Assembly: GCA_963818475.1 (NCBI GenBank) | Contig: CAWFSF010000002.1 | Span: 96,001 to 160,000 of the forward strand | DNA: 64,000 bases | Origin: Nitrospirota bacterium | GTDB taxonomy: Bacteria; Nitrospirota; UBA9217 | Direction: 5' to 3' | Notes under the pieces: model-generated | What the model saw: only the letters and a program-made list of their open reading frames with translations | What the model was told of the DNA's origin: nothing | Database searches by the model: none | Program-made: the position numbers and the translations under genes | In this document: one piece after another, positions 42,800 through 52,977 of the stretch | How positions within the stretch are numbered: position 1 is the first letter of the stretch | Layout of the letters: each line of letters opens with the position of its first letter

Positions 42800-44414
42800 T
42801 CACTTCTGGTTCTTCTCCTCCAAGAACCACTCATCGGCAAAGGAGAAGAACTTGTACGGATGGATCGCCACGCGGCGGATCTTCTTATGGTATGCCGCGT
42901 AGTTCGTGAGCGTCCAGAGGAAGGTATAAGGGTTCTCCTCTGCCAGAATGGCATGCAGTTTGCGGTTGATGGTCCGCCGCTTCTCGTGGTCCAGCGTGAG
43001 CTTGCTTTCGTTGATCAGGCCGTCCACCTCGGGGTTCGAGTAGCCGATGAAGTTGTTCTTATGCAGCCCGATCTCGGCCGAGTGGAACAAGGACGAGATA
43101 TCCGCCGAATCATCGAAGACCCAGGAGGCGAAGACGATATCAAAATCATGCTCCTGGAACACGTCCTCTTTCCAGGCATACCACTCCTTGAACTCGACCT
43201 TGACGTCCACGCCGACGTTCTTGAGATAGTTCTTGAACGCGAGCACCACGCGCTTCACCGCCTCGCTTTCCTTCTCGATCGGCACCTTGAGGGTCAAGGA
43301 CAGCCGCTTGCCCGACTTCTCCATGATGCCGTCGGCGCCCCGGGTGAAACCCGCTTCCTGCAGGAGCGCTTTCGACTTTTCAGGATCGAACGCGAGGGGC
43401 TGCACGTCGAGATTGTAGGCCCAGCTTCCCGGCGCGAAGGGTCCGGAAATGATCGTCCCCTGGCCGTTAAAGAAGGCGTCGAGCATCTCCTGCCGGTTCA
43501 CGGCATGGGTGAAGGCCCTGCGCACGCGCGCATCGGCAAGCAGCGGGTTCCGCAGGTTGTAGCCGAAGAACGAGTAGGAGAGCGCGTTGTAAGGCTGCAG
43601 GATGAAGCGCTTGTCTCCCTGGATCTCAGGGATGTCCCGCGGGTTCACGAGCACGATCATATCGATGGCGTTGAACATGAGCGCCTGCGTCATGATGTTC
43701 TGGTCCGCAAAGGGCTTTGCCGCCAGCTTGTCGATATGGGGCCGCCCCTTGAAATAGTCTTCGTTGGCAACCAGCACGATCTCCCGCTCGGCCGTAACGT
43801 CCTTCAGCATATAGGGGCCGGTGCCGATGGGATTCTGAACAAAGGGGTCTTCCCGGGTGAGGTACAGGGAATTGGTCGGGCCGTGCTTGGGGATGATCTT
43901 GAAGCTGAACTTTGCAAGGGCGTTCAGGATCGGCCGTTTGAGCGTGAACTTCACGGTCGCGTCGTCGATCTTTTCGACACGGGAGATGAACTCGTAGCGC
44001 ACCTTGAGCGGCGTGATGGTCCTGGGGTGCATCATGATATTGTACGTGAAGACCACATCGTCGGCCGTGAACGGCTTCGGCTGTTCGCCTTCGCGCGGGT
44101 GCCAGGTCACGTCCTTGCGCAGGTGGAAGATGTAGGTGTTCCGGTCCGGCGTCTCCCACTTCTCCGCCAGCTCCGGAACGATTTCCTGCTTTTCGTTGAT
44201 GCCCACGAGGCCGTTGAAAATCAGCTCCGTGAGCCGCAAGCGAGATCATCTCGTTGCTCGTGATGGGGTCAAGGGTCGCCGGCCGGCCGTATTCGCCGTA
44301 GCTGAGGCTGCCCCCGTCCGGCCGGTGGTCTTTCTTACTGGCTGCCCCTGCAGGGGCCACTGCGATTATGGCCATGGAAACGATCAAAAGTAGAACCACC
44401 AGTATACGTTTCAT
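42800..44414 (-). CDS. Peptide ABC transporter substrate-binding protein, family 5 (frameshift near 44240)
   Basis: Signal peptide and ATLDP in one frame; PELAEKW, LRKDVTWH, FTADDVVFT, PIGTGPY and VRRAF in the next. Confidence 0.92.
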
Positions 44415-44520: not shown

Positions 44521-46008
44521 TCAATTGATCTTCACATCCCCTGCGCTCTTGTGCTCCATGGCATACACTCCCTGCATGGCCTCCTGGAGCTGGCGCACTT
44601 CAGGAAACTGTTTGCTCATCTCGAAATAGATCTCAAGGGCTTCGGAGAATTTTTTGGTCCTGAAATAGGCATCAGCAAGACTTACGAGCATCTCTGGATC
44701 GTTCGATTCTATCTTGTTCTTGTTGCTCTTGTCGCGGCCTGCCTCAAGATAGGTGACCGCCCGCGCAGTATCCAGCCTGCCAAGATAGTATTTACCCAGC
44801 GCGATATTCAGGGTCGAGAATTTCCTGCCCTCACCTGCTTCAACCGCTGCCGCGCTCCGCCGGGCCGCATTCGAACATTCTGCTTTCAATCGTCTGCAGG
44901 AGAACAGTATCTCTGCGAGCACGTCAGGGTCCTGGGATGGTTTCCCGGCAAGCTCGTCCCAGACCTTCATGGCATCCGTTTTCCGATTCATAGAGTACAA
45001 ATTGGCAGCCTGCAGCACCCGTGCCTGATCCTTGAACTGCTGGGGCAGCTGGGCAGTTGCAAGGAACGAATCAGCAGTCTTCCTGGACCGGTCCGCTGAT
45101 CCGAACAAAGCGTAAGCCTGTCCGAGGTAGAACTCAGCGGAACCCTTGACCTTGGCGTCGGCAGCGGCCTTTTCGAGACAGGCAATGCTCGCCTGTCCAT
45201 AGAGCGAGGCCATGTCGTCCAGCAAAGAAAGATCGTAAAAATTGATGACCTTTGACTTGCCCAGCGTCTCCCGATAGGAGAAGGCTTTCAGGTCGGCACG
45301 CTTGAGCAGATCCAAGCCCTTCTCGGTCAAGCCGGCCCGCGCGTAGACCGCGAGGAGGTTCTTCACCATCCTTATGGAGAGCGGCTTTCCGCGCTTCGTC
45401 TGGCTGGCAAGGCTTTCCTCCGCCAGCGCCAGCGGATCCTTGTCCTTGAGCCCCGCCCTGCTGTACGCCGCTGCCAGCTCGGCTTTCACCTCGGGATCGG
45501 CGGAATCGATGGCCGCCCAGAGCGGCGCCGCCTTCGCCGCCTCATTGCCTGCCTGATAGCTCAGTCCGAGACGCACCTGGGCGATCGCCTGGTACTGCGG
45601 GTTCAGTCCTTCATTGGCAAGGAACTGCCTGAGATAGATCGCGGCAACATCGGCCTTGCCGGCCTCGATCAGTGCATCGCCCATGTACAGATCAACAAAA
45701 CGGCTCCGGCTGCTCCCCCGAAGGGCCGATAGCTTTTTCAGATAGTCCTGCGATGCCCATGCCGAGGCCAGGTAGAGCTCGCGGTGCAGCACCGCGTTCT
45801 TAAAATAGGTCATGCCGAGCGCAAGGTTCAGTGAACCCTGTTTGGCCTGGCCGAGCGATGCGGCATTGGAGCGAAGCAGACCGGCTGCTTCGTCATAGTG
45901 CCGCTTTTCATAGAGTTTCACCGCTTTGGTCACGATATCGTCGGCCCCAGAGGCTTGCGCCGCGATAATAAGGCTCATCGATACAAAAAATAACACGAAA
46001 CGTCCCAT
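44521..46008 (-). CDS. Secreted TPR-like helical repeat protein
   Basis: Signal peptide; repeated LG..Y / A..Y helical motifs. Confidence 0.75.
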   Translation of the reverse strand: MGRFVLFFVSMSLIIAAQASGADDIVTKAVKLYEKRHYDEAAGLLRSNAASLGQAKQGSLNLALGMTYFKNAVLHRELYLASAWASQDYLKKLSALRGSSRSRFVDLYMGDALIEAGKADVAAIYLRQFLANEGLNPQYQAIAQVRLGLSYQAGNEAAKAAPLWAAIDSADPEVKAELAAAYSRAGLKDKDPLALAEESLASQTKRGKPLSIRMVKNLLAVYARAGLTEKGLDLLKRADLKAFSYRETLGKSKVINFYDLSLLDDMASLYGQASIACLEKAAADAKVKGSAEFYLGQAYALFGSADRSRKTADSFLATAQLPQQFKDQARVLQAANLYSMNRKTDAMKVWDELAGKPSQDPDVLAEILFSCRRLKAECSNAARRSAAAVEAGEGRKFSTLNIALGKYYLGRLDTARAVTYLEAGRDKSNKNKIESNDPEMLVSLADAYFRTKKFSEALEIYFEMSKQFPEVRQLQEAMQGVYAMEHKSAGDVKIN

Positions 46009-46050: not shown

Positions 46051-47355
46051 CTACTTCAATTTCATGGTATAGATCTGGTCCCACTGATCGACCTGTGCTC
46101 GGAACGCGATGCTCCCGTCCGCTGAGCAGGCGACATCGTGGTTCATCTTCGTGTCTGTTTTGATCGGTGCGATCGTCTTCTGCACCACATCGGCAATATA
46201 GAGCGGATTGTATTCCTGCCGGTCGTTCTTCACGAAGACGATATGGCTGCTGTCGGGCATCCAGGCCGGCCCTGTTTCCACGTCGGGGATGATATCCGCT
46301 GCCACGACCTTTGCAGCAAGGCCTTCTCCTGCGGAAGGGTCCGTGCCGTCGGCTGCAACCACGAAGATCGACCAGATCTTCGGGTCTTCTGCCGCGTTGT
46401 GATTGGAATAGAACGCGATCTTTCGGCCATCGGGCGACCAGACCGGCCGCAGGTCGTCAGAGGCCCAGGTCGTGATGCGCATCTGCGACTCCGTTGGCCT
46501 TGCCACGTCATTAATTACGAGGATGTCATGGTTCTCGTTGCTGCCGTACATCGTGGCGATCTTTCCGCCGTCCGGCGACCACTTGGGGTAGAGGTATGCT
46601 TTCCCTCCCCGGGTCAGGCGCGTAAGCGCCCGGGACAACAGGTCCATTCTATAGAGGTCGCCGTTACCGGTGCGGCCCGACACGAACACCAAGCGATCGG
46701 CGGCAGGAGACCACTGCACCTGTCCGTCCTTCTCCTTATGCTCCGTAAGCCGCGTCGCGGCTTCCCCGCCGAGGTCCTGGAAGAAGAGGTCGTAGTTGCC
46801 CTCGCCGCCGTTGCTCATGAACACAAAGCCGTTCTCCCGGGGCGACCAGCTGATGCCGGCATTGTAGCTCGTCTCTTCCGATACCCCGGGGAAGAAGAAC
46901 TTGACGTTATTCCCGCCCGATGAAAGCAGGGAATAGACCGTCTGGACGGGCGTACCGTCAGGCAGCACGATATGGATCTCCCGTTTGTCACCCACGCTCC
47001 GTTCAAAGGTGATGAGCGTGCCTTGCGGCGACCACTGGGGGTTCGAATCGTTGCGTCCCTGCTCGATGGCCACCAGCGGCCTGACGAACAGGGGCACCAG
47101 TGCCTGGGGCTTTTTTTCTTCAGGTTGTGCTTCCGTCCCTGTCCCGGCAGATACAACTCCCGCAGGTGCACCAGGAAGCGGAACCGCAGCGCTGTTCGCT
47201 GCAGCTCCATGCTGTCCGGTTCCCGTGACAGTCGTAGTTGCCGCTGACGAGATGGGATCATCGGCCATCCCTGCACGCGGCTGGAGCAACAACATCAGAA
47301 CAACTCCCAAACCGCCAAAACACTTCCTTGCCTTCACGCCGTGAACCTCCTGCAC
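46051..47355 (-). CDS. Secreted TolB-like (PD40/WD40) beta-propeller protein
   Basis: Repeated P.WSPDG..I.F motifs; signal peptide and low-complexity linker. Start uncertain. Confidence 0.85.
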   Translation of the reverse strand: MQEVHGVKARKCFGGLGVVLMLLLQPRAGMADDPISSAATTTVTGTGQHGAAANSAAVPLPGAPAGVVSAGTGTEAQPEEKKPQALVPLFVRPLVAIEQGRNDSNPQWSPQGTLITFERSVGDKREIHIVLPDGTPVQTVYSLLSSGGNNVKFFFPGVSEETSYNAGISWSPRENGFVFMSNGGEGNYDLFFQDLGGEAATRLTEHKEKDGQVQWSPAADRLVFVSGRTGNGDLYRMDLLSRALTRLTRGGKAYLYPKWSPDGGKIATMYGSNENHDILVINDVARPTESQMRITTWASDDLRPVWSPDGRKIAFYSNHNAAEDPKIWSIFVVAADGTDPSAGEGLAAKVVAADIIPDVETGPAWMPDSSHIVFVKNDRQEYNPLYIADVVQKTIAPIKTDTKMNHDVACSADGSIAFRAQVDQWDQIYTMKLK

Positions 47356-47358
47356 ATC

Positions 47359-49935
47359 CTAAAGGTTCTTGATCTGGTCCCAGTATTTCTCTGCTGTCTC
47401 GCGGGCCTGCTCAAAGGTGCTGTTCCCTTCGAGCTTTTTTGGGAAGAAGTCAAAGTACTCGCGCCACGCCAGGTTTGCGTCATTCAGGAGGTTGCCCTTC
47501 CGCGTGAGCTGATAGAGTTTGTGGTACGACAAAGCCGTGTAGTAGTAGGTGTCGTGCACGGCCTCGTCATAGCGGTCATTCGGGAAGAACCGGGTGTTCT
47601 GTTTTGCTTTCTGGAGGTTCTGGATGGCCCTGGCAAAGCTCACTGCAGCCGCGTCCTTGTCCTTCGGCACCAGAGCGCTGCCTTTTTCATAATAGGCGTG
47701 TCCCAGGTTCATGAAGGCCACGGAGAACTGCTTGAACACCAGCTGCTGGTTCTCGGGCAAAGACAGCACGTTCTCGAACTCGCGGATGGCGCTGTCGAAA
47801 TCGCCTTTGTCGTCCAGATAGACCTGCGCCAGCCGGTGATGGGTCTCCGAATAGTCCGGATGGCCCTTCTCGGTGCTCTGGTACGCATTGATCGCAGCGT
47901 CAAAGTCTCCCTTCTGCTCCGCCCGTGCGCCGATCTTCAGATAATCCTTCGGCAGGTTGATCTTCGCGCTGCCCGTGCGGTTCTCTTCCTTCTTTGAGAA
48001 CTCCATGACCTCTTCCCAGTCGCGGTAGTCGCCGCCGACCGAGACCCTGACGGTGTGGAAACCCAGGGTAACCGGCTTCCCCTCGCGGATCGGGGTGCTG
48101 CCGATCTTCTCTCCATCCACAAACACCTCTGCACCCGATGGCTCCGATTCGACCTTGAACACCGCATTATTGACCGCCAGCGTGAAATCCTTCGCGTCTT
48201 TGTTCTTTTCGATCTTCACTGTCTCGGTCAGTTGCTGGTAGCCGTGCCGGTAGAGCACGAGAGTGAGGTTCTTGTTCAGGCGCACCGGGACCTCGGCCTT
48301 GCCGTCGCTCCCGGTCGTACCGAGCCATTCGTTGTTCACGTAGATATTCACGCCTGCAAGCGGGGAAACGTCGGGAGGCAGGCCGCCCCTGGCGGAAAGG
48401 ATGAAAGTGTTGCGGGCGCTCTCTTCCTCTCCTTCATGATAGATGCGCCGCACCACCCGGTCGCCGATCTCGATCTTTGCGCCTTTTTTAAGATCCAGGA
48501 CCTCGGTCCAGGAGCCGTTCCCTTCGGTCTTCTTGACCTGCAGCCTGCCGGTCTCGCGGTAACCCGAGACCTTGCCGTCCGCATTGAGCTGCGGAGACAT
48601 GAGCGTGAAGTCCGTTCCCTTGCTGATCTTGTAGTCCGCCCTGCCGAGGTTGATGCGGTAGCGTTCATCGTCGACGGCGATCACCGTGCCTTCGAAGGGG
48701 AACCGTCCGAGCACCGCGGCGGCGATCTCCTTGGCCGCGCTGTTGATGTTGTCGGCGCTCTTGGCCCGCGTGAGCTGGCTCAGGATGAGCTTTCCGCCCG
48801 ATGTGTAGAACTTGGTCTCGATCAGGTAGCCTTTGTCGTCCTTGGCAACGCTGCCGAGGACGATCATGTCCACGGTCTTGCGCAGCGGCGTTTCGCGCCA
48901 TCCCTTCACGGTGATCTTGTCGATATTCAAGCGCGCGCGCTTCATGTCCGCCTGGAGCGTTTTGGAAGGCACTTCACGGAAGCAGGTGTTCTTGAAGAGC
49001 TGTGCTGCCAAAGCAGTCTCGGTCTGGGACACGATATCCTGAAGGTCGACGTTCGGCGTGTTGCCCGCGAACCGGTAGATGCCGGCCCGGATCTGCTTCG
49101 GCGTGCTGGGGTAGAAATAGTGCTCGATTGTGACCTCGCCCTCAAGCGTGATCGTGGTTTTCCACACCCCGGGGATTGAGCCGGGTGCCGAGAGCGACAA
49201 GGGCACTTTCTTGCCCGGTTCGCCGTCGTAGGTGTAGGTAAAGACGCCTTTGGCGTCGGTCTTGCCTTCGGTCTTTTTGTTGATGGCCACCACAACACCC
49301 GGGATGCCGCTCGTCTGCCCATACTCTTCCCTGAGCGCGCGGACCGTGACGATCACGCGCTTGGAAAGGGCGGCTTCGATCGTCTGGCCAGGCTCCACCG
49401 GGCCGGTCCTGCGCCAGGTGGCATAGCCGGACTTCGTCACCGCAAGGTCCAGGCCTGCCTTGGGCTGATCCTTGTACTCGTACACGAACAAACCCTGCGC
49501 ATCGGTCTTGCCGGCTTCCGTGCCCGCGGCCATGACGATTGCGTCCTGAATCGCCGTTCCCATTTCGGCGGCCTTGATCGTAATGTACCGTGTTGCTTCG
49601 AGCTCCGCGGAAAGGGGATAGGTTTCGACGCTGCCTGACTTGGGCAGTTTCATAAGAAACGTGCCCTTCCAGGGCTTGATGCGGTAGCCAGGCAACTCTC
49701 TGGCAGTGACGACCACCTCCACATCAGCGCCCGGCTTTTTCCTGATCGTCTTCGTAAAAATCCCGTCCGCACCGGTGAAGCCCTGCTCCTCGTTGTCCAC
49801 CGTTACTGTTGCCTGTGCCGCCGGTTGGCCATCAAGGCGGGCCATTACCTTCAGTTCGAGCTTCTCGCCCGCGCAGGCAAAGAGCAGGGATGACGCCGCC
49901 ATCACAAGAACTGTCCTGAATACACGCTTCATCAT
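47359..49935 (-). CDS. Large lipoprotein with repeated beta-sandwich (GxTDxxG) modules, PEGA domain and C-terminal TPRs
   Basis: LFAC lipobox, several GKTDxxG repeats, VESEPSGAEVFVDG..IG.TP (PEGA), TPR helices. Confidence 0.82.
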   Translation of the reverse strand: MMKRVFRTVLVMAASSLLFACAGEKLELKVMARLDGQPAAQATVTVDNEEQGFTGADGIFTKTIRKKPGADVEVVVTARELPGYRIKPWKGTFLMKLPKSGSVETYPLSAELEATRYITIKAAEMGTAIQDAIVMAAGTEAGKTDAQGLFVYEYKDQPKAGLDLAVTKSGYATWRRTGPVEPGQTIEAALSKRVIVTVRALREEYGQTSGIPGVVVAINKKTEGKTDAKGVFTYTYDGEPGKKVPLSLSAPGSIPGVWKTTITLEGEVTIEHYFYPSTPKQIRAGIYRFAGNTPNVDLQDIVSQTETALAAQLFKNTCFREVPSKTLQADMKRARLNIDKITVKGWRETPLRKTVDMIVLGSVAKDDKGYLIETKFYTSGGKLILSQLTRAKSADNINSAAKEIAAAVLGRFPFEGTVIAVDDERYRINLGRADYKISKGTDFTLMSPQLNADGKVSGYRETGRLQVKKTEGNGSWTEVLDLKKGAKIEIGDRVVRRIYHEGEEESARNTFILSARGGLPPDVSPLAGVNIYVNNEWLGTTGSDGKAEVPVRLNKNLTLVLYRHGYQQLTETVKIEKNKDAKDFTLAVNNAVFKVESEPSGAEVFVDGEKIGSTPIREGKPVTLGFHTVRVSVGGDYRDWEEVMEFSKKEENRTGSAKINLPKDYLKIGARAEQKGDFDAAINAYQSTEKGHPDYSETHHRLAQVYLDDKGDFDSAIREFENVLSLPENQQLVFKQFSVAFMNLGHAYYEKGSALVPKDKDAAAVSFARAIQNLQKAKQNTRFFPNDRYDEAVHDTYYYTALSYHKLYQLTRKGNLLNDANLAWREYFDFFPKKLEGNSTFEQARETAEKYWDQIKNL

Positions 49936-50108: not shown

Positions 50109-50558
50109 CTACATGGTCGGCGGCTGGATATTGACCTCGCCGGGGTTTACGATCTTGTCCTCGTCGGACTTTGAGCCTTCGATGCTCCTGCGCGTGCTCT
50201 CGGGGATCTTCTTGATCCTGAAGTCAGCCTTCTTGCCGCCGAACTTCGAGACCTCCAGAGACTGCGTCTCGGTCATATAACCGATCCTGCTCACTTCCAC
50301 TTTATAGAGGCCGGGAACAATGGCGTCCTTGGCGGATTCGTATTTCCCTTCCTTGTTGACCACAACGGAGTGGGACGCTTTTTCCAGGCTCGTCGAGGTA
50401 TTGATCAAGTTCACCACGGTTCCCTCTGGGAGTTCTTTGGTCAATGGAACGGGCTGCAGGGCGGCATCCACCAGCTGCACCGTACCGTAGATGCGGGGCG
50501 AACAGGCCGGCAGCACGGCAATAAGACAGGCACACACGAACAGGATCGAACGATTCAT
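50109..50558 (-). CDS. Small lipoprotein with carboxypeptidase-regulatory-like beta-sandwich
   Basis: LPAC lipobox, G.Y...PG.YKVEVS..GY pattern, AGGAGG RBS. Confidence 0.78.
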   Translation of the reverse strand: MNRSILFVCACLIAVLPACSPRIYGTVQLVDAALQPVPLTKELPEGTVVNLINTSTSLEKASHSVVVNKEGKYESAKDAIVPGLYKVEVSRIGYMTETQSLEVSKFGGKKADFRIKKIPESTRRSIEGSKSDEDKIVNPGEVNIQPPTM

Positions 50559-50616: not shown

Positions 50617-50664
50617 AAAACAAAAAACCGCCAAAGAGCTCATGAGAAATGATATCTTTGGCGG
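50617..50664 (-). terminator. Riboswitch expression-platform intrinsic terminator
   Basis: - strand CCGCCAAAGA...TCTTTGGCGG-TTTTTTGTTTT; the 5' arm is the 3' end of the aptamer. Confidence 0.85.
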
Positions 50665-50790
50665 CTCGACTGGCGTATAAAACAGCGACAGCTTCCCGGG
50701 TGAAATGGTACACTCGGATGCAAAGTCTGTTTTACGTAGCTTCGTGGCTCTGCGCCCCACGGTTTCCCGTGGTTTGCTCTGAGCAAAGTC
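50655..50790 (-). ncRNA. c-di-GMP-I (GEMM) class riboswitch, A20 variant (possible 3',3'-cGAMP sensor)
   Basis: - strand AGCAAACCACGG-GAAA-CCGTGGGGCGCAGAGCCACG...CAGTCGAGCCGCC, with P1 CTTTG/CAAAG. Confidence 0.85.
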
Positions 50791-50818
50791 ATAGGGTATG
50801 GCACAGCTTCGTAGAAAG

Positions 50819-50847
50819 AATTTAGCACGAGTGTTAGAGCTTGTCAA
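50819..50847 (-). promoter_or_regulatory. sigma70 promoter upstream of the riboswitch
   Basis: TTGACA-N17-TAAATT with TG extension. Confidence 0.75.
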
Positions 50848-51098
50848 GGGAGCAACAACATTATGCAATTCCCCTGCAGCACGCTGTTGTCGCAATAAAG
50901 CGCATGTTTTGATGCCGCCATAAGACCGCGGACGCGTTGTTCCAAAGCGAATGATTCTGAACAGAAGCGACCTCTCCGCAGAACCTGTTAAATGATCGCT
51001 CGAAAAAATTATAAAAAACCATTGCCAGCGAGCCGCTGCTGATGTATTATGCGTGGTTGCGTCACCTGCCTCCCCGGACGGCGCTTGAAAGGAATATC

Positions 51099-52977
51099 AT
51101 GCTCCAGGTCGCGAATATAGAGAAATCCTACGGCAAGCAGACGCTGTTTGACGGCGTCAGCTTTACGGTAAATCCCGGAGAACGCGTGGGCCTCGTGGGC
51201 CGGAACGGCCACGGCAAGTCCACGCTCTTCCGCATGATCCTTGGGGAAGAGCACCAGGACGACGGCACGATCACGACGCCCTGCGGGCTACACCATCGGC
51301 CATTTGTCGCAGCACATCCACTTTACGGAAAAGACGGTCCTCGAGGAGGCCTGCCTCAGCCTGCCGCCGAACGAAGACCACATAGACGAGACCTATAAGG
51401 CCGAAGCGATCCTGCACGGCCTGGGCTTCACCAACAACGACTTCGACCGTTCTCCGGACGAGCTCTCAGGCGGCTACCAGGTGCGCCTGAACCTCGCCAA
51501 GGTCCTGGCCTCCATGCCGAACCTTTTACTGCTCGACGAACCCACGAACTACCTCGACATCCTCTCGGTCCGATGGCTCACGCAATTCCTCCGTGCCTGG
51601 CGCGGAGAGCTTGTCATCATCACCCATGACCGCGAGTTCATGGACAGCGTCTGCACCCACACCATGGCGATCCACCGCGCCAAGATGAAGAAGGTCGCGG
51701 GCAGCACGCGAAAGCTCTACGAGCAGATCCTGCTCGAAGAAGAGATCTACGAGAAGACCCGCCAGAACGACGAGAAAAAGCGGAAAGAAACAGAACAGTT
51801 CATCAACCGCTTTCGCGCCCAGGCCACCAAAGCCAGCGCGGTCCAGTCACGCGTCAAGGCGCTTGCACGGCATGAGCAGCTCGACAAGCTGGAGGCGATC
51901 AAGAACCTCGAGTTTTCGTTCCAGTCGGCGCCTTTTTCGGCCAAGTGGCTTCTGAACACCGAAGAGCTCTGCTTCTCCTTCACCGACGACGGGCCCAACC
52001 TCATCGACGGCCTGACCTTTGCCGTGGGGAAGAAGGACCGCATCGCCGTCATCGGAAAGAACGGCAAGGGCAAGACCACGCTGCTCAACCTGCTGGCCCG
52101 GGAACTGCCGCCCTCCTGCGGCGAGATCAAACACCATCCGAACATGAGGCTCGCCTACTTCGGCCAGACGAACATCAACCGGCTGAACCCGGCCAAGACG
52201 GCGCTCCAGGAAATCATGGACTCCCACCCGGACCACGCCCACGGCATTTCGCGCTCCATCTGCGGCGTCATGATGTTCGAAGGGGACAATGCGCTCAAGA
52301 AAGTGAGCGTGCTGTCGGGCGGCGAGAAGAGCCGCGTGCTGCTCGGCAAGCTCCTTGTCTCGCCGGCGAACCTGCTCATGCTCGACGAGCCCACGAACCA
52401 TCTGGATATGGAGTCCATCGACTCGCTCATCGAAGCGATCGACGTGTTCGACGGCGCGGTCATCATCGTGACGCACAGCGAACTGATGCTGCACGCCCTG
52501 GCAACCCGACTCATCGTGTACGACAACGACACCATCAGCCTCTTTGAAGGGACCTACAGCGACTTCCTCGAACGGGTGGGCTGGGGCGAAGAGGGCGGGC
52601 CCAAAAAGAAGAAACAGAAAAAGAACGCGGACACGAGCGCGAACACCAAAGGCAACGGTGCCAAGGACGCCAAACGTCAGCGCACCACGCTCATGAACGA
52701 CCGCTCAAAAGCGCTGGGGCCGATGGCTGCTCAGATTGCTTCCCTAGAAGCGACCATAACGGGGCTCGAGCAAGCTGTGGAAAAGGACACGCAGGCGCTT
52801 GCGGCTGCTTCCTCCAGGGGCGAAGCCCTCGCGATCAGGACGCTCTCGCATTCCTTGCGCGAGAATCAGCAGAAGATCGATACGCTCTTTGCGGAGCTTG
52901 AAGCGCTCACCGCGAAACATGACGCGAAAGCGCAGGAGTATGACAAGCAGTTGGCTGAACTGGCAGAGGTATCGTAG
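51099..52977 (+). CDS. ABC-F family ATPase (frameshift near 51283)
   Basis: Two NBDs (GRNGHGKS, LSGG, LDEPTNYLD; [22 protein letters not shown]), no TM, coiled-coil tail. Confidence 0.92.

Follow-up and report, generated by a model that had tools for sequence, protein, structure and literature searches.

The leader of a four-gene operon in the window (the whole 64-kb stretch of Nitrospirota DNA analysed here) is, judged by covariance-model alignment and by conservation among relatives, a genuine riboswitch of the GEMM-I fold and one more example of a known riboswitch kind. On its sequence, the description that suits it best is that of a natural G20A variant of the Vc2 type: the G that makes such RNAs selective for c-di-GMP is absent and an A stands in its place. 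The aptamer shares one strand with an intrinsic terminator, and a transcriptional ON-switch logic of this leader is well supported. That cellular 3',3'-cGAMP is what this ON riboswitch responds to, with a measurable affinity for c-di-GMP retained, is a reading to which we give about even weight on the residues available.

Aptamer, terminator and switch logic

The Rfam models were run with cmscan over the whole window, and RF01051 (c-di-GMP-I / GEMM-I) was the sole family to match (Table 1). A first-pass annotation of this DNA had called a GEMM-I aptamer from the letters alone, and the covariance model bears this out with a score of 49.2 bits (cut-off 35); the P1 strands CTTTG/CAAAG, the P2 with its GAAA tetraloop and the segment GCGCAGAGCC that it had described are each present in the Rfam alignment. 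P2 consists of six pairs under the GAAA cap and opens with G-C/C-G pairs. Both the GAAA loop and the CUA...UA.G receptor positions find their counterparts in the RF01051 model, docking itself being a property of the three-dimensional structure. In P3 the alignment places 48 nt where the model has 3, and the stretch that opens with CGUAAAACAG and closes with CUGUUUUAUACG measures 63 nt, which makes the extension of about 60 nt announced earlier a fair estimate. Among the 8 relatives in which the model bridges it, the insertion varies over 36-62 nt, and a short P3 of normal length is found in other copies of the subtype (L090-L092); it is therefore a variable extension and not a defining feature.

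Table 1. Features of the riboswitch leader and of the operon that follows it, in window coordinates.
Feature	Position	Strand	Basis and remarks
Sigma-70-type promoter: -35 TTGACA, 17-nt spacer, TG-extended -10 TAAATT	50819..50847	-	10/12 consensus positions matched
c-di-GMP-I (GEMM-I) aptamer, A variant	50657-50788	-	49.2 bits vs cut-off 35, E 1.3e-06, model positions 1-87 (full)
P1 5' strand CUUUG	50784..50788	-	5 pairs, unchanged in 10/10 orthologues
A at Vc2 G20 position (RF01051 model position 11)	50778	-	cmscan, top posterior probability
P2 hairpin with GAAA tetraloop	50757..50772 (loop 50763-50766)	-	cmscan and orthologue alignment
P3 including tetraloop-receptor-like CUACG/UAC segment	50663..50749	-	cmscan and orthologue alignment
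Distal P3 extension: conserved UAAAACAG/CUGUUUUA stem and variable tip	50678..50734	-	48-nt insertion; hairpin fold in 10/10 orthologues
C at Vc2 C92 / Gs1761 C75 position (pairs with ligand G)	50661	-	model position 83; roles from literature
P1 3' strand CAAAG, common to aptamer and terminator	50656..50660	-	leader fold and orthologue alignment
Intrinsic terminator	50622..50664 (5' arm 50655-50664, 3' arm 50628-50637, U6 50622-50627)	-	leader fold
First regulated gene: 149-aa lipoprotein-like protein, CarboxypepD_reg-like domain, GGAGG upstream	50109..50558	-	27.8 bits, below Pfam cut-off 32.3
858-aa PEGA / CarboxypepD_reg / TPR protein	47359..49935	-	Pfam
434-aa PD40 (TolB-like) beta-propeller protein	46051..47355	-	Pfam, NCBIfam
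495-aa TPR protein, probably last operon gene	44521..46008	-	Pfam

Covariation was assessed on 10 orthologous leaders, the window leader and 9 relatives. The 32 aptamer pairs give 320 pair cells, 91.9% of which hold standard pairs, and both sides have changed in five pairs, three of these among the six pairs of P2. The covariation score of the aptamer was reached by 0/500 shuffles, and slid controls of the same alignment were only 34-44% paired. That the RF01051 match could have arisen by chance or be a degenerate remnant, with no regulatory role, is already contradicted by this conservation and seems to us barely credible: the score exceeds the curated cut-off by 14 bits, the pairing of leader and operon is kept in 9/9 Nitrospirota-labelled relatives with sufficient upstream DNA, P2 shows compensatory changes and both promoter and terminator are conserved. 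In its favour, the assembly is frameshifted nearby. From the metatranscriptome X20 came only contigs of relatives, less than 95% alike, that reach across part of the first gene and 37 nt of the aptamer; they are no proof of transcription and yield no transcript ends. As to the frameshifts, an SBP_bac_5 gene (42800-44414, - strand) and an ABC-F ATPase gene (51042-52977, + strand) are each split over two overlapping frames, which suggests assembly indel errors or real frameshifts. Two ORFs of 103 and 62 aa overlapping the leader were discarded as artefacts of structured RNA.

The sigma70 promoter of the first-pass annotation was recovered on the same strand as the aptamer (Table 1), which begins about 30 nt downstream of it, and TTGACA occurs within 72 nt upstream of the aptamer in 9/10 of the orthologous leaders extracted. 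In the minimum-free-energy fold of the leader GAGCCGCCAAAGA pairs with UCUUUGGCGGUUU and a U run comes next (z -5.1, with 0/200 shuffles as stable). The GAGCCGCCAAAGA arm consists of the base of P3, the ligand-pairing C and the P1 3' strand; the earlier proposal that the 3' end of the aptamer doubles as the 5' arm of a terminator, with ON logic as the outcome, thus finds this overlap with P1 and the pocket in 10/10 orthologous leaders. The 10-bp terminator stem is paired in 97% of cells and its core is invariant in 10/10 leaders, while the loops vary widely in length and sequence. Covariation of the terminator was looked for across the 10 leaders and none was found, since the aptamer leaves the 5' arm no freedom to change. 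A consensus terminator scan did not detect the window terminator, the loop of which is longer than 8 nt. A rough pattern search puts a stretch of at least five T after the aptamer at 26/34 sites of the subtype, usually 13-45 nt beyond it.

The energy of the leader is -66.3 kcal/mol with the terminator as against -40.1 kcal/mol when the aptamer helices are enforced, which makes termination the predicted default state and implies that the ligand must hold P1 during transcription for read-through to occur. Since the 3' strand of the aptamer is the 5' arm of the terminator, ligand binding should switch the operon ON; whereas the alignments directly show the fold and the A as well as the terminator overlap, all of them conserved, this direction of control is what we infer from them. 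Transcription would start about 25-30 nt upstream of the aptamer. When no ligand is present, the aptamer 3' strand (P3 base, ligand-pairing C and P1 3' strand) would pair with the downstream UCUUUGGCGG, and the resulting terminator, which precedes the U run, would keep the four-gene envelope operon off. Binding of a 3',3'-cyclic dinucleotide would lock P1 and the junction and block the terminator, so that RNA polymerase would read through. The pgcA GEMM-Ib switch of Geobacter is described with the same terminator-based ON logic in the accessible part of PMC6456294.

The segment UUUGCU-CAG-AGCAAA (50773-50787, - strand) can close on itself as a small hairpin in which J1/2, the A and the 5' strand of P1 are sequestered, and such local pairing of the P1 5' strand is predicted when the first 141 nt are folded in the absence of ligand. 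This hairpin may be an apo-state element that helps keep P1 open, and could explain the invariance of P1, even across phyla; as its bases never vary, such a role is proposed from the predicted fold.

The four products of the operon (Table 1) are apparently envelope proteins. A search of the operon proteins against NCBIfam returned no family beyond repeats and the TolB-like propeller.

Conservation and spread of the subtype

Relatives of the operon were collected with the 858-aa protein as query, which gave 19 loci, 15 of them with at least 1600 nt upstream. An RF01051 match lies at the same place in all 9 Nitrospirota-labelled loci among these 15, and none was found in the other 6, which are labelled Thermodesulfobacteriota, Desulfobacterales, Rokuibacteriota (2), Gammaproteobacteria and 'bacterium'. 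The operon relatives with the leader are thus Nitrospirota-labelled, in agreement with the non-Geobacter lineage proposed at the outset. The A at the G20 position is present in 9/9 relatives, or 10/10 with the window copy.

The spread of the scaffold was followed with the 14-mer TGCTCAGAGCAAAC, which spans J1/2 and the A and runs into P2, the reversed pattern serving as control. It occurs in 72/401 sampled Nitrospirota genomes against 2 matches of the control, and in 46/63 genomes of the window's own family; in two other large Nitrospirota families it was found in 0/76 and 0/28 genomes. Twenty of its loci were scanned and 14 are RF01051 matches, one locus holding three in tandem. Locus L039 (G312:C46:21813-24826) has three tandem RF01051 matches in about 530 nt, upstream of an fn3-rich surface protein. 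In the phylum of the Thermodesulfobacteriota-labelled relative, TGCTCAGAGCAAAC occurs in 12/201 sampled genomes (1 control match), and three of the six loci fetched there are full matches of the same subtype, which is consequently not a Nitrospirota peculiarity.

When the specificity position was left free (GCTCAGNGCAAAC, with N at that position), 95 matches were obtained in 64 family genomes, comprising 74 A, 14 G, 6 C and 1 T, as compared to 16 control matches. The G and C matches were considered as counterparts of the scaffold and rejected: 0/20 are GEMM-I, and their number fits the control background of 16. In the sequences compared, the specificity base of this scaffold is always A, in every verified copy across two phyla. 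The retention of A in 10/10 orthologues, together with the 0/20 GEMM-I among the non-A matches, argues that the A is under selection.

The first ORF after 24 other copies of the subtype encodes a surface-repeat protein in 8 cases, PilM in 3, the 149-aa operon protein in 4 and a protein without Pfam match in 6, the remainder being single occurrences of MotA/ExbB, a Crp-type regulator and a kumamolisin-type protease. The surface-repeat and PilM targets resemble the Geobacter GEMM-Ib regulon as described in the accessible part of PMC6456294.

The genome to which the window belongs (4.66 Mb in 7 contigs, 91% complete) contains 8 GEMM-I matches that fall in four groups. Three are of the subtype of the window copy (the window copy itself, L004 and L006). 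Another three, L001, L002 and L005 (G000:C5:394113, C2:797503 and C2:778144), are better fitted by the c-di-GMP-I-GGC variant family RF03167 and precede small AHSA1/SRPBCC and CBS-domain protein genes; five copies of the RF03167 type are found in the Thermodesulfobacteriota-labelled relative G401. The only G20 copy of the genome, L003 (G000:C2:187261-187338, - strand), lies 21 nt upstream of a multihaem cytochrome gene (Paired_CXXCH), and its control is probably translational, as the ribosome-binding site comes directly after the aptamer. A second kind of A-variant GEMM-I, L008 (G000:C1:325538-325614, + strand, 40.6 bits), has a J1/2 of A-U-A-A-U-A followed by C, which is the residue pattern of the cGAMP-selective Gs1761; downstream of L008 lie a terminator-like hairpin and then an ORF of more than 435 aa without Pfam match. 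The presence of a G20 copy and three GGC-variant copies in the same genome suggests different roles for the variants.

Ligand pocket and candidate cyclases

Manual alignment in the first-pass annotation had put an A at the G20 position (the complement of 50778), and the covariance-model alignment likewise has A there, not G. The corresponding model position 11 is the unpaired base ahead of the G-C/C-G pairs that open P2 and was equated with Vc2 G20 through residue lists published in the accessible parts of PMC5888326, PMC6140456 and PMC7288161.

With Vc2 of Vibrio cholerae the window aptamer has in common the three-helix junction, the GAAA tetraloop of P2 and the receptor-like segment of P3. 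Its six-nt J1/2, C-U-C-A-G-A, matches the contacts C15, C17, A18 and G19 and is followed by G-C as the first P2 pair; an intercalating A (the equivalent of Vc2 A47, model position 38) follows P2, and the C that pairs with the ligand G is present. It differs from Vc2 by A for G20, by U for A16 and by a G as the middle of the three junction As (J2/3 being C-A-G-A-G as against the consensus C-A-A-A-G), as well as by a P3 48 nt longer and by ON control through the overlapping terminator. The Vc2 pocket is listed as G14, C15, A16, C17, A18, G19, G21 and C46 in the accessible text of PMC7288161, and in this residue comparison the window pocket follows the list save at two positions.

A different picture was obtained with the cGAMP-selective Gs1761, around the ligand of which PMC7288161 and PMC6274999 list G8, A9, A11, A12, U13, A14, C15, G40, A41, A42, G74, C75 and C76. 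Equivalents in the window aptamer were found only for A14, A41, G74, C75 and C76, and it is without the J1/2 and first P2 pair of Gs1761 (A9, A11, A12, U13, A14, C15-G40). The likeness to Geobacter GEMM-Ib RNAs (Gs1761 / pgcA, Gm0970) lies in the A at the G20 position, the G-C-C at J1/3 and the start of P1, the terminator-based ON switch, the surface- or pilus-type regulons and the tandem copies in some relatives. The window RNA thus departs from the pocket of the Geobacter subclass yet may, from its sequence, function like the Geobacter type.

Closer models are the Vc2 G20A mutant and Cbe 1-2, a natural A variant of Clostridium beijerinckii, both of which have a Vc2-type scaffold with A at position 20. 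In the accessible part of PMC6140456, Vc2 G20A is reported to bind c-di-GMP at 53 nM and cGAMP at 120 nM, and Cbe 1-2 at 30 nM and 463 nM respectively, c-di-GMP being accommodated in both through protonation of the adenine. A at position 20 is the mark of cGAMP-binding GEMM-Ib RNAs yet is insufficient alone, as these two RNAs illustrate; A-variant GEMM-I riboswitches were already described inside and outside Geobacter, Cbe 1-2 being an outside example. Both have been measured to be bispecific or c-di-GMP-preferring, whereas the window RNA is known from its sequence and differs at other junction positions. By analogy with them, its Vc2-type G20A character leads us to expect that it binds both cGAMP and c-di-GMP.

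The genome encodes 27 GGDEF-domain matches, most of them with the canonical Asp at the Hypr position, which lies nine residues after the substrate Asn (Asn339 and Ser348 in the numbering of PMC6456294, accessible part). Ser occupies this position in only two of the 27, a GAF-GGDEF and a CHASE3-HAMP-GGDEF protein. The first-pass annotation had pointed to Hypr GGDEF synthases of the GacA type as the enzymes to look for, and this held in part: no GacA-type Rec-GGDEF was found among the GGDEF proteins of this 91% complete genome, while the two Ser348-type proteins do occur, both with atypical motifs (GGEEF and GGDDY).

The GAF-GGDEF protein (377 aa, G000:C6:2265714-2266847, - strand) has Tyr at the GacA-304 position, Ser348 and the motif GGEEF, in an architecture reported for Myxococcus GacB (bioRxiv 10.1101/600031, accessible part). 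Its best relative among 51 solved GGDEF chains is 6D9M, the Hypr domain of Geobacter GacA, with which it has Tyr304 and the Ser in common. All of its best 120 homologues (62-94% identity) have Tyr and GGEEF, with Ser in 119 and Thr in 1. When the Hypr rule (Ser/Thr348, non-Arg 304, GGDE[F/Y]) was applied, two of the three features were present and the motif departed from the rule. Natural Ser/Thr348 enzymes have been reported with GGDE[F/Y] only, and Ser348 with GGEEF was inactive in GacA (2019 eLife paper); the Tyr304/Ser348/GGEEF combination conflicts with that account, which knows no natural example of it. An orthologue of the GAF-GGDEF is present in 61/63 genomes of the window's family; in f2, f6, f8 and f13, four further Nitrospirota families with the riboswitch subtype, none was found. 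A linkage of cyclase and riboswitch subtype was considered and set aside: their co-occurrence was seen only at family level, for the window's own family, and is therefore no evidence of linkage.

The CHASE3-HAMP-GGDEF protein (460 aa, G000:C6:1078227-1079609, + strand) combines Ser with GGDDY, and its best 120 homologues all have Ser, with GGDDF in 97, GGDDY in 22 and TGDDF in 1. This combination fits the published GSU1937, to which we liken it by description only and which contributes to G. sulfurreducens cGAMP levels (PMC8835794, accessible part). A paralogous CHASE3-HAMP-GGDEF (C6:940893-942275, + strand) has Asn at the Ser position and GGDDF. Two further GGDEF proteins (G000:C6:978899-980236, - strand, and C6:725650-726810, + strand) have Asn at 348 (GHEKGN), the cross-dimer Tyr and GGEEF. 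A search for CD-NTases in the same 91% complete genome gave 0 matches for SMODS and 0 for DncV-like proteins, the control of the latter being silent too. On the strength of these residues, a cGAMP source in this genome is plausible.

Readings of the ligand

Since the ligand-pairing C is kept and A replaces G, the ligand should contain at least one G, and the other site should accept A; we infer the identity of the ligand from these positions. Measured against the pocket comparison, the response to 3',3'-cGAMP is possible and not favoured: the junction is like that of Vc2 and not like that of Gs1761, and the atypical motifs of both Ser-type cyclases break published rules, each of which counts against it. 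So do the affinities of Vc2 G20A and Cbe 1-2, the lack of CD-NTase matches, the four subtype-bearing families in which the GAF-GGDEF was not found and the lack of covariation in the terminator. Junction and motifs also lend weight to c-di-GMP as the sole physiological ligand of the same ON riboswitch, an alternative that we hold to be a serious one with distinctly less than an even chance. Where G20 aptamers bind c-di-GMP in the picomolar range, the A would then weaken binding to nanomolar levels, and the A-variant operons would be turned on only at high c-di-GMP, the G20 copy responding earlier. Vc2 G20A and Cbe 1-2 bind c-di-GMP at least equally well via a protonated adenine, according to the accessible part of the source cited above; the pocket of the window aptamer is Vc2-like, the 27 GGDEF matches have mostly the canonical Asp, a proven cGAMP synthase is absent and the motifs of the Ser-type candidates are reported to be inactive or unusual. 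Lowered affinity for c-di-GMP accounts less readily for the fixation of A in every verified copy of the scaffold in two phyla, or for a Hypr-like GGDEF (Tyr304, Ser348) in 61/63 family genomes, the residues of which are kept by its best 120 homologues; moreover, the Gs1761-like L008 in the same genome hints at the use of cGAMP.

It is to be noted that the active-site motifs of both Ser-type families lie outside the described classes and that Hypr GGDEFs accept other purine NTPs (PMC6456294, accessible part). Taken with the departure of J2/3 from the consensus, this would allow for another G-containing nucleotide signal, for instance a dinucleotide of another kind, cyclic or linear, that the Ser348/GGEEF or GGDD[F/Y] enzymes would produce. 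We consider this improbable, as the named ligand contacts match those of c-di-GMP-I except at G20 and one junction A, and such a ligand is known for the GEMM-I fold, in the accessible portions of the literature, only with engineered double mutants.

Returning to cGAMP, the observations can be assembled into a broader proposal, which we put forward tentatively and regard as rather doubtful. There may exist a second cGAMP-sensing subclass of GEMM-I riboswitches with a Vc2-like pocket, a fixed A and an invariant CUUUG/CAAAG P1, occurring in some Nitrospirota and in a second phylum. Its ligand would come from Tyr304/Ser348/GGEEF and Ser348/GGDD[F/Y] cyclases that break the 'Goldilocks' Hypr rule, and the subclass would control surface proteins, pili and envelope complexes.

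Should cGAMP be the preferred ligand, GGDEF-based cGAMP signalling would extend into uncultured Nitrospirota, and the GEMM-I fold would be seen to recognise cGAMP through a second type of pocket, of use in biosensors and in the prediction of ligands from sequence. Should c-di-GMP be preferred, the window RNA would provide a clean natural case in which A at position 20 is not predictive of cGAMP sensing, and a warning against annotating 'GEMM-Ib' from a single base. Whichever of the two is preferred, the switch marks the operon as one under cyclic-dinucleotide control.
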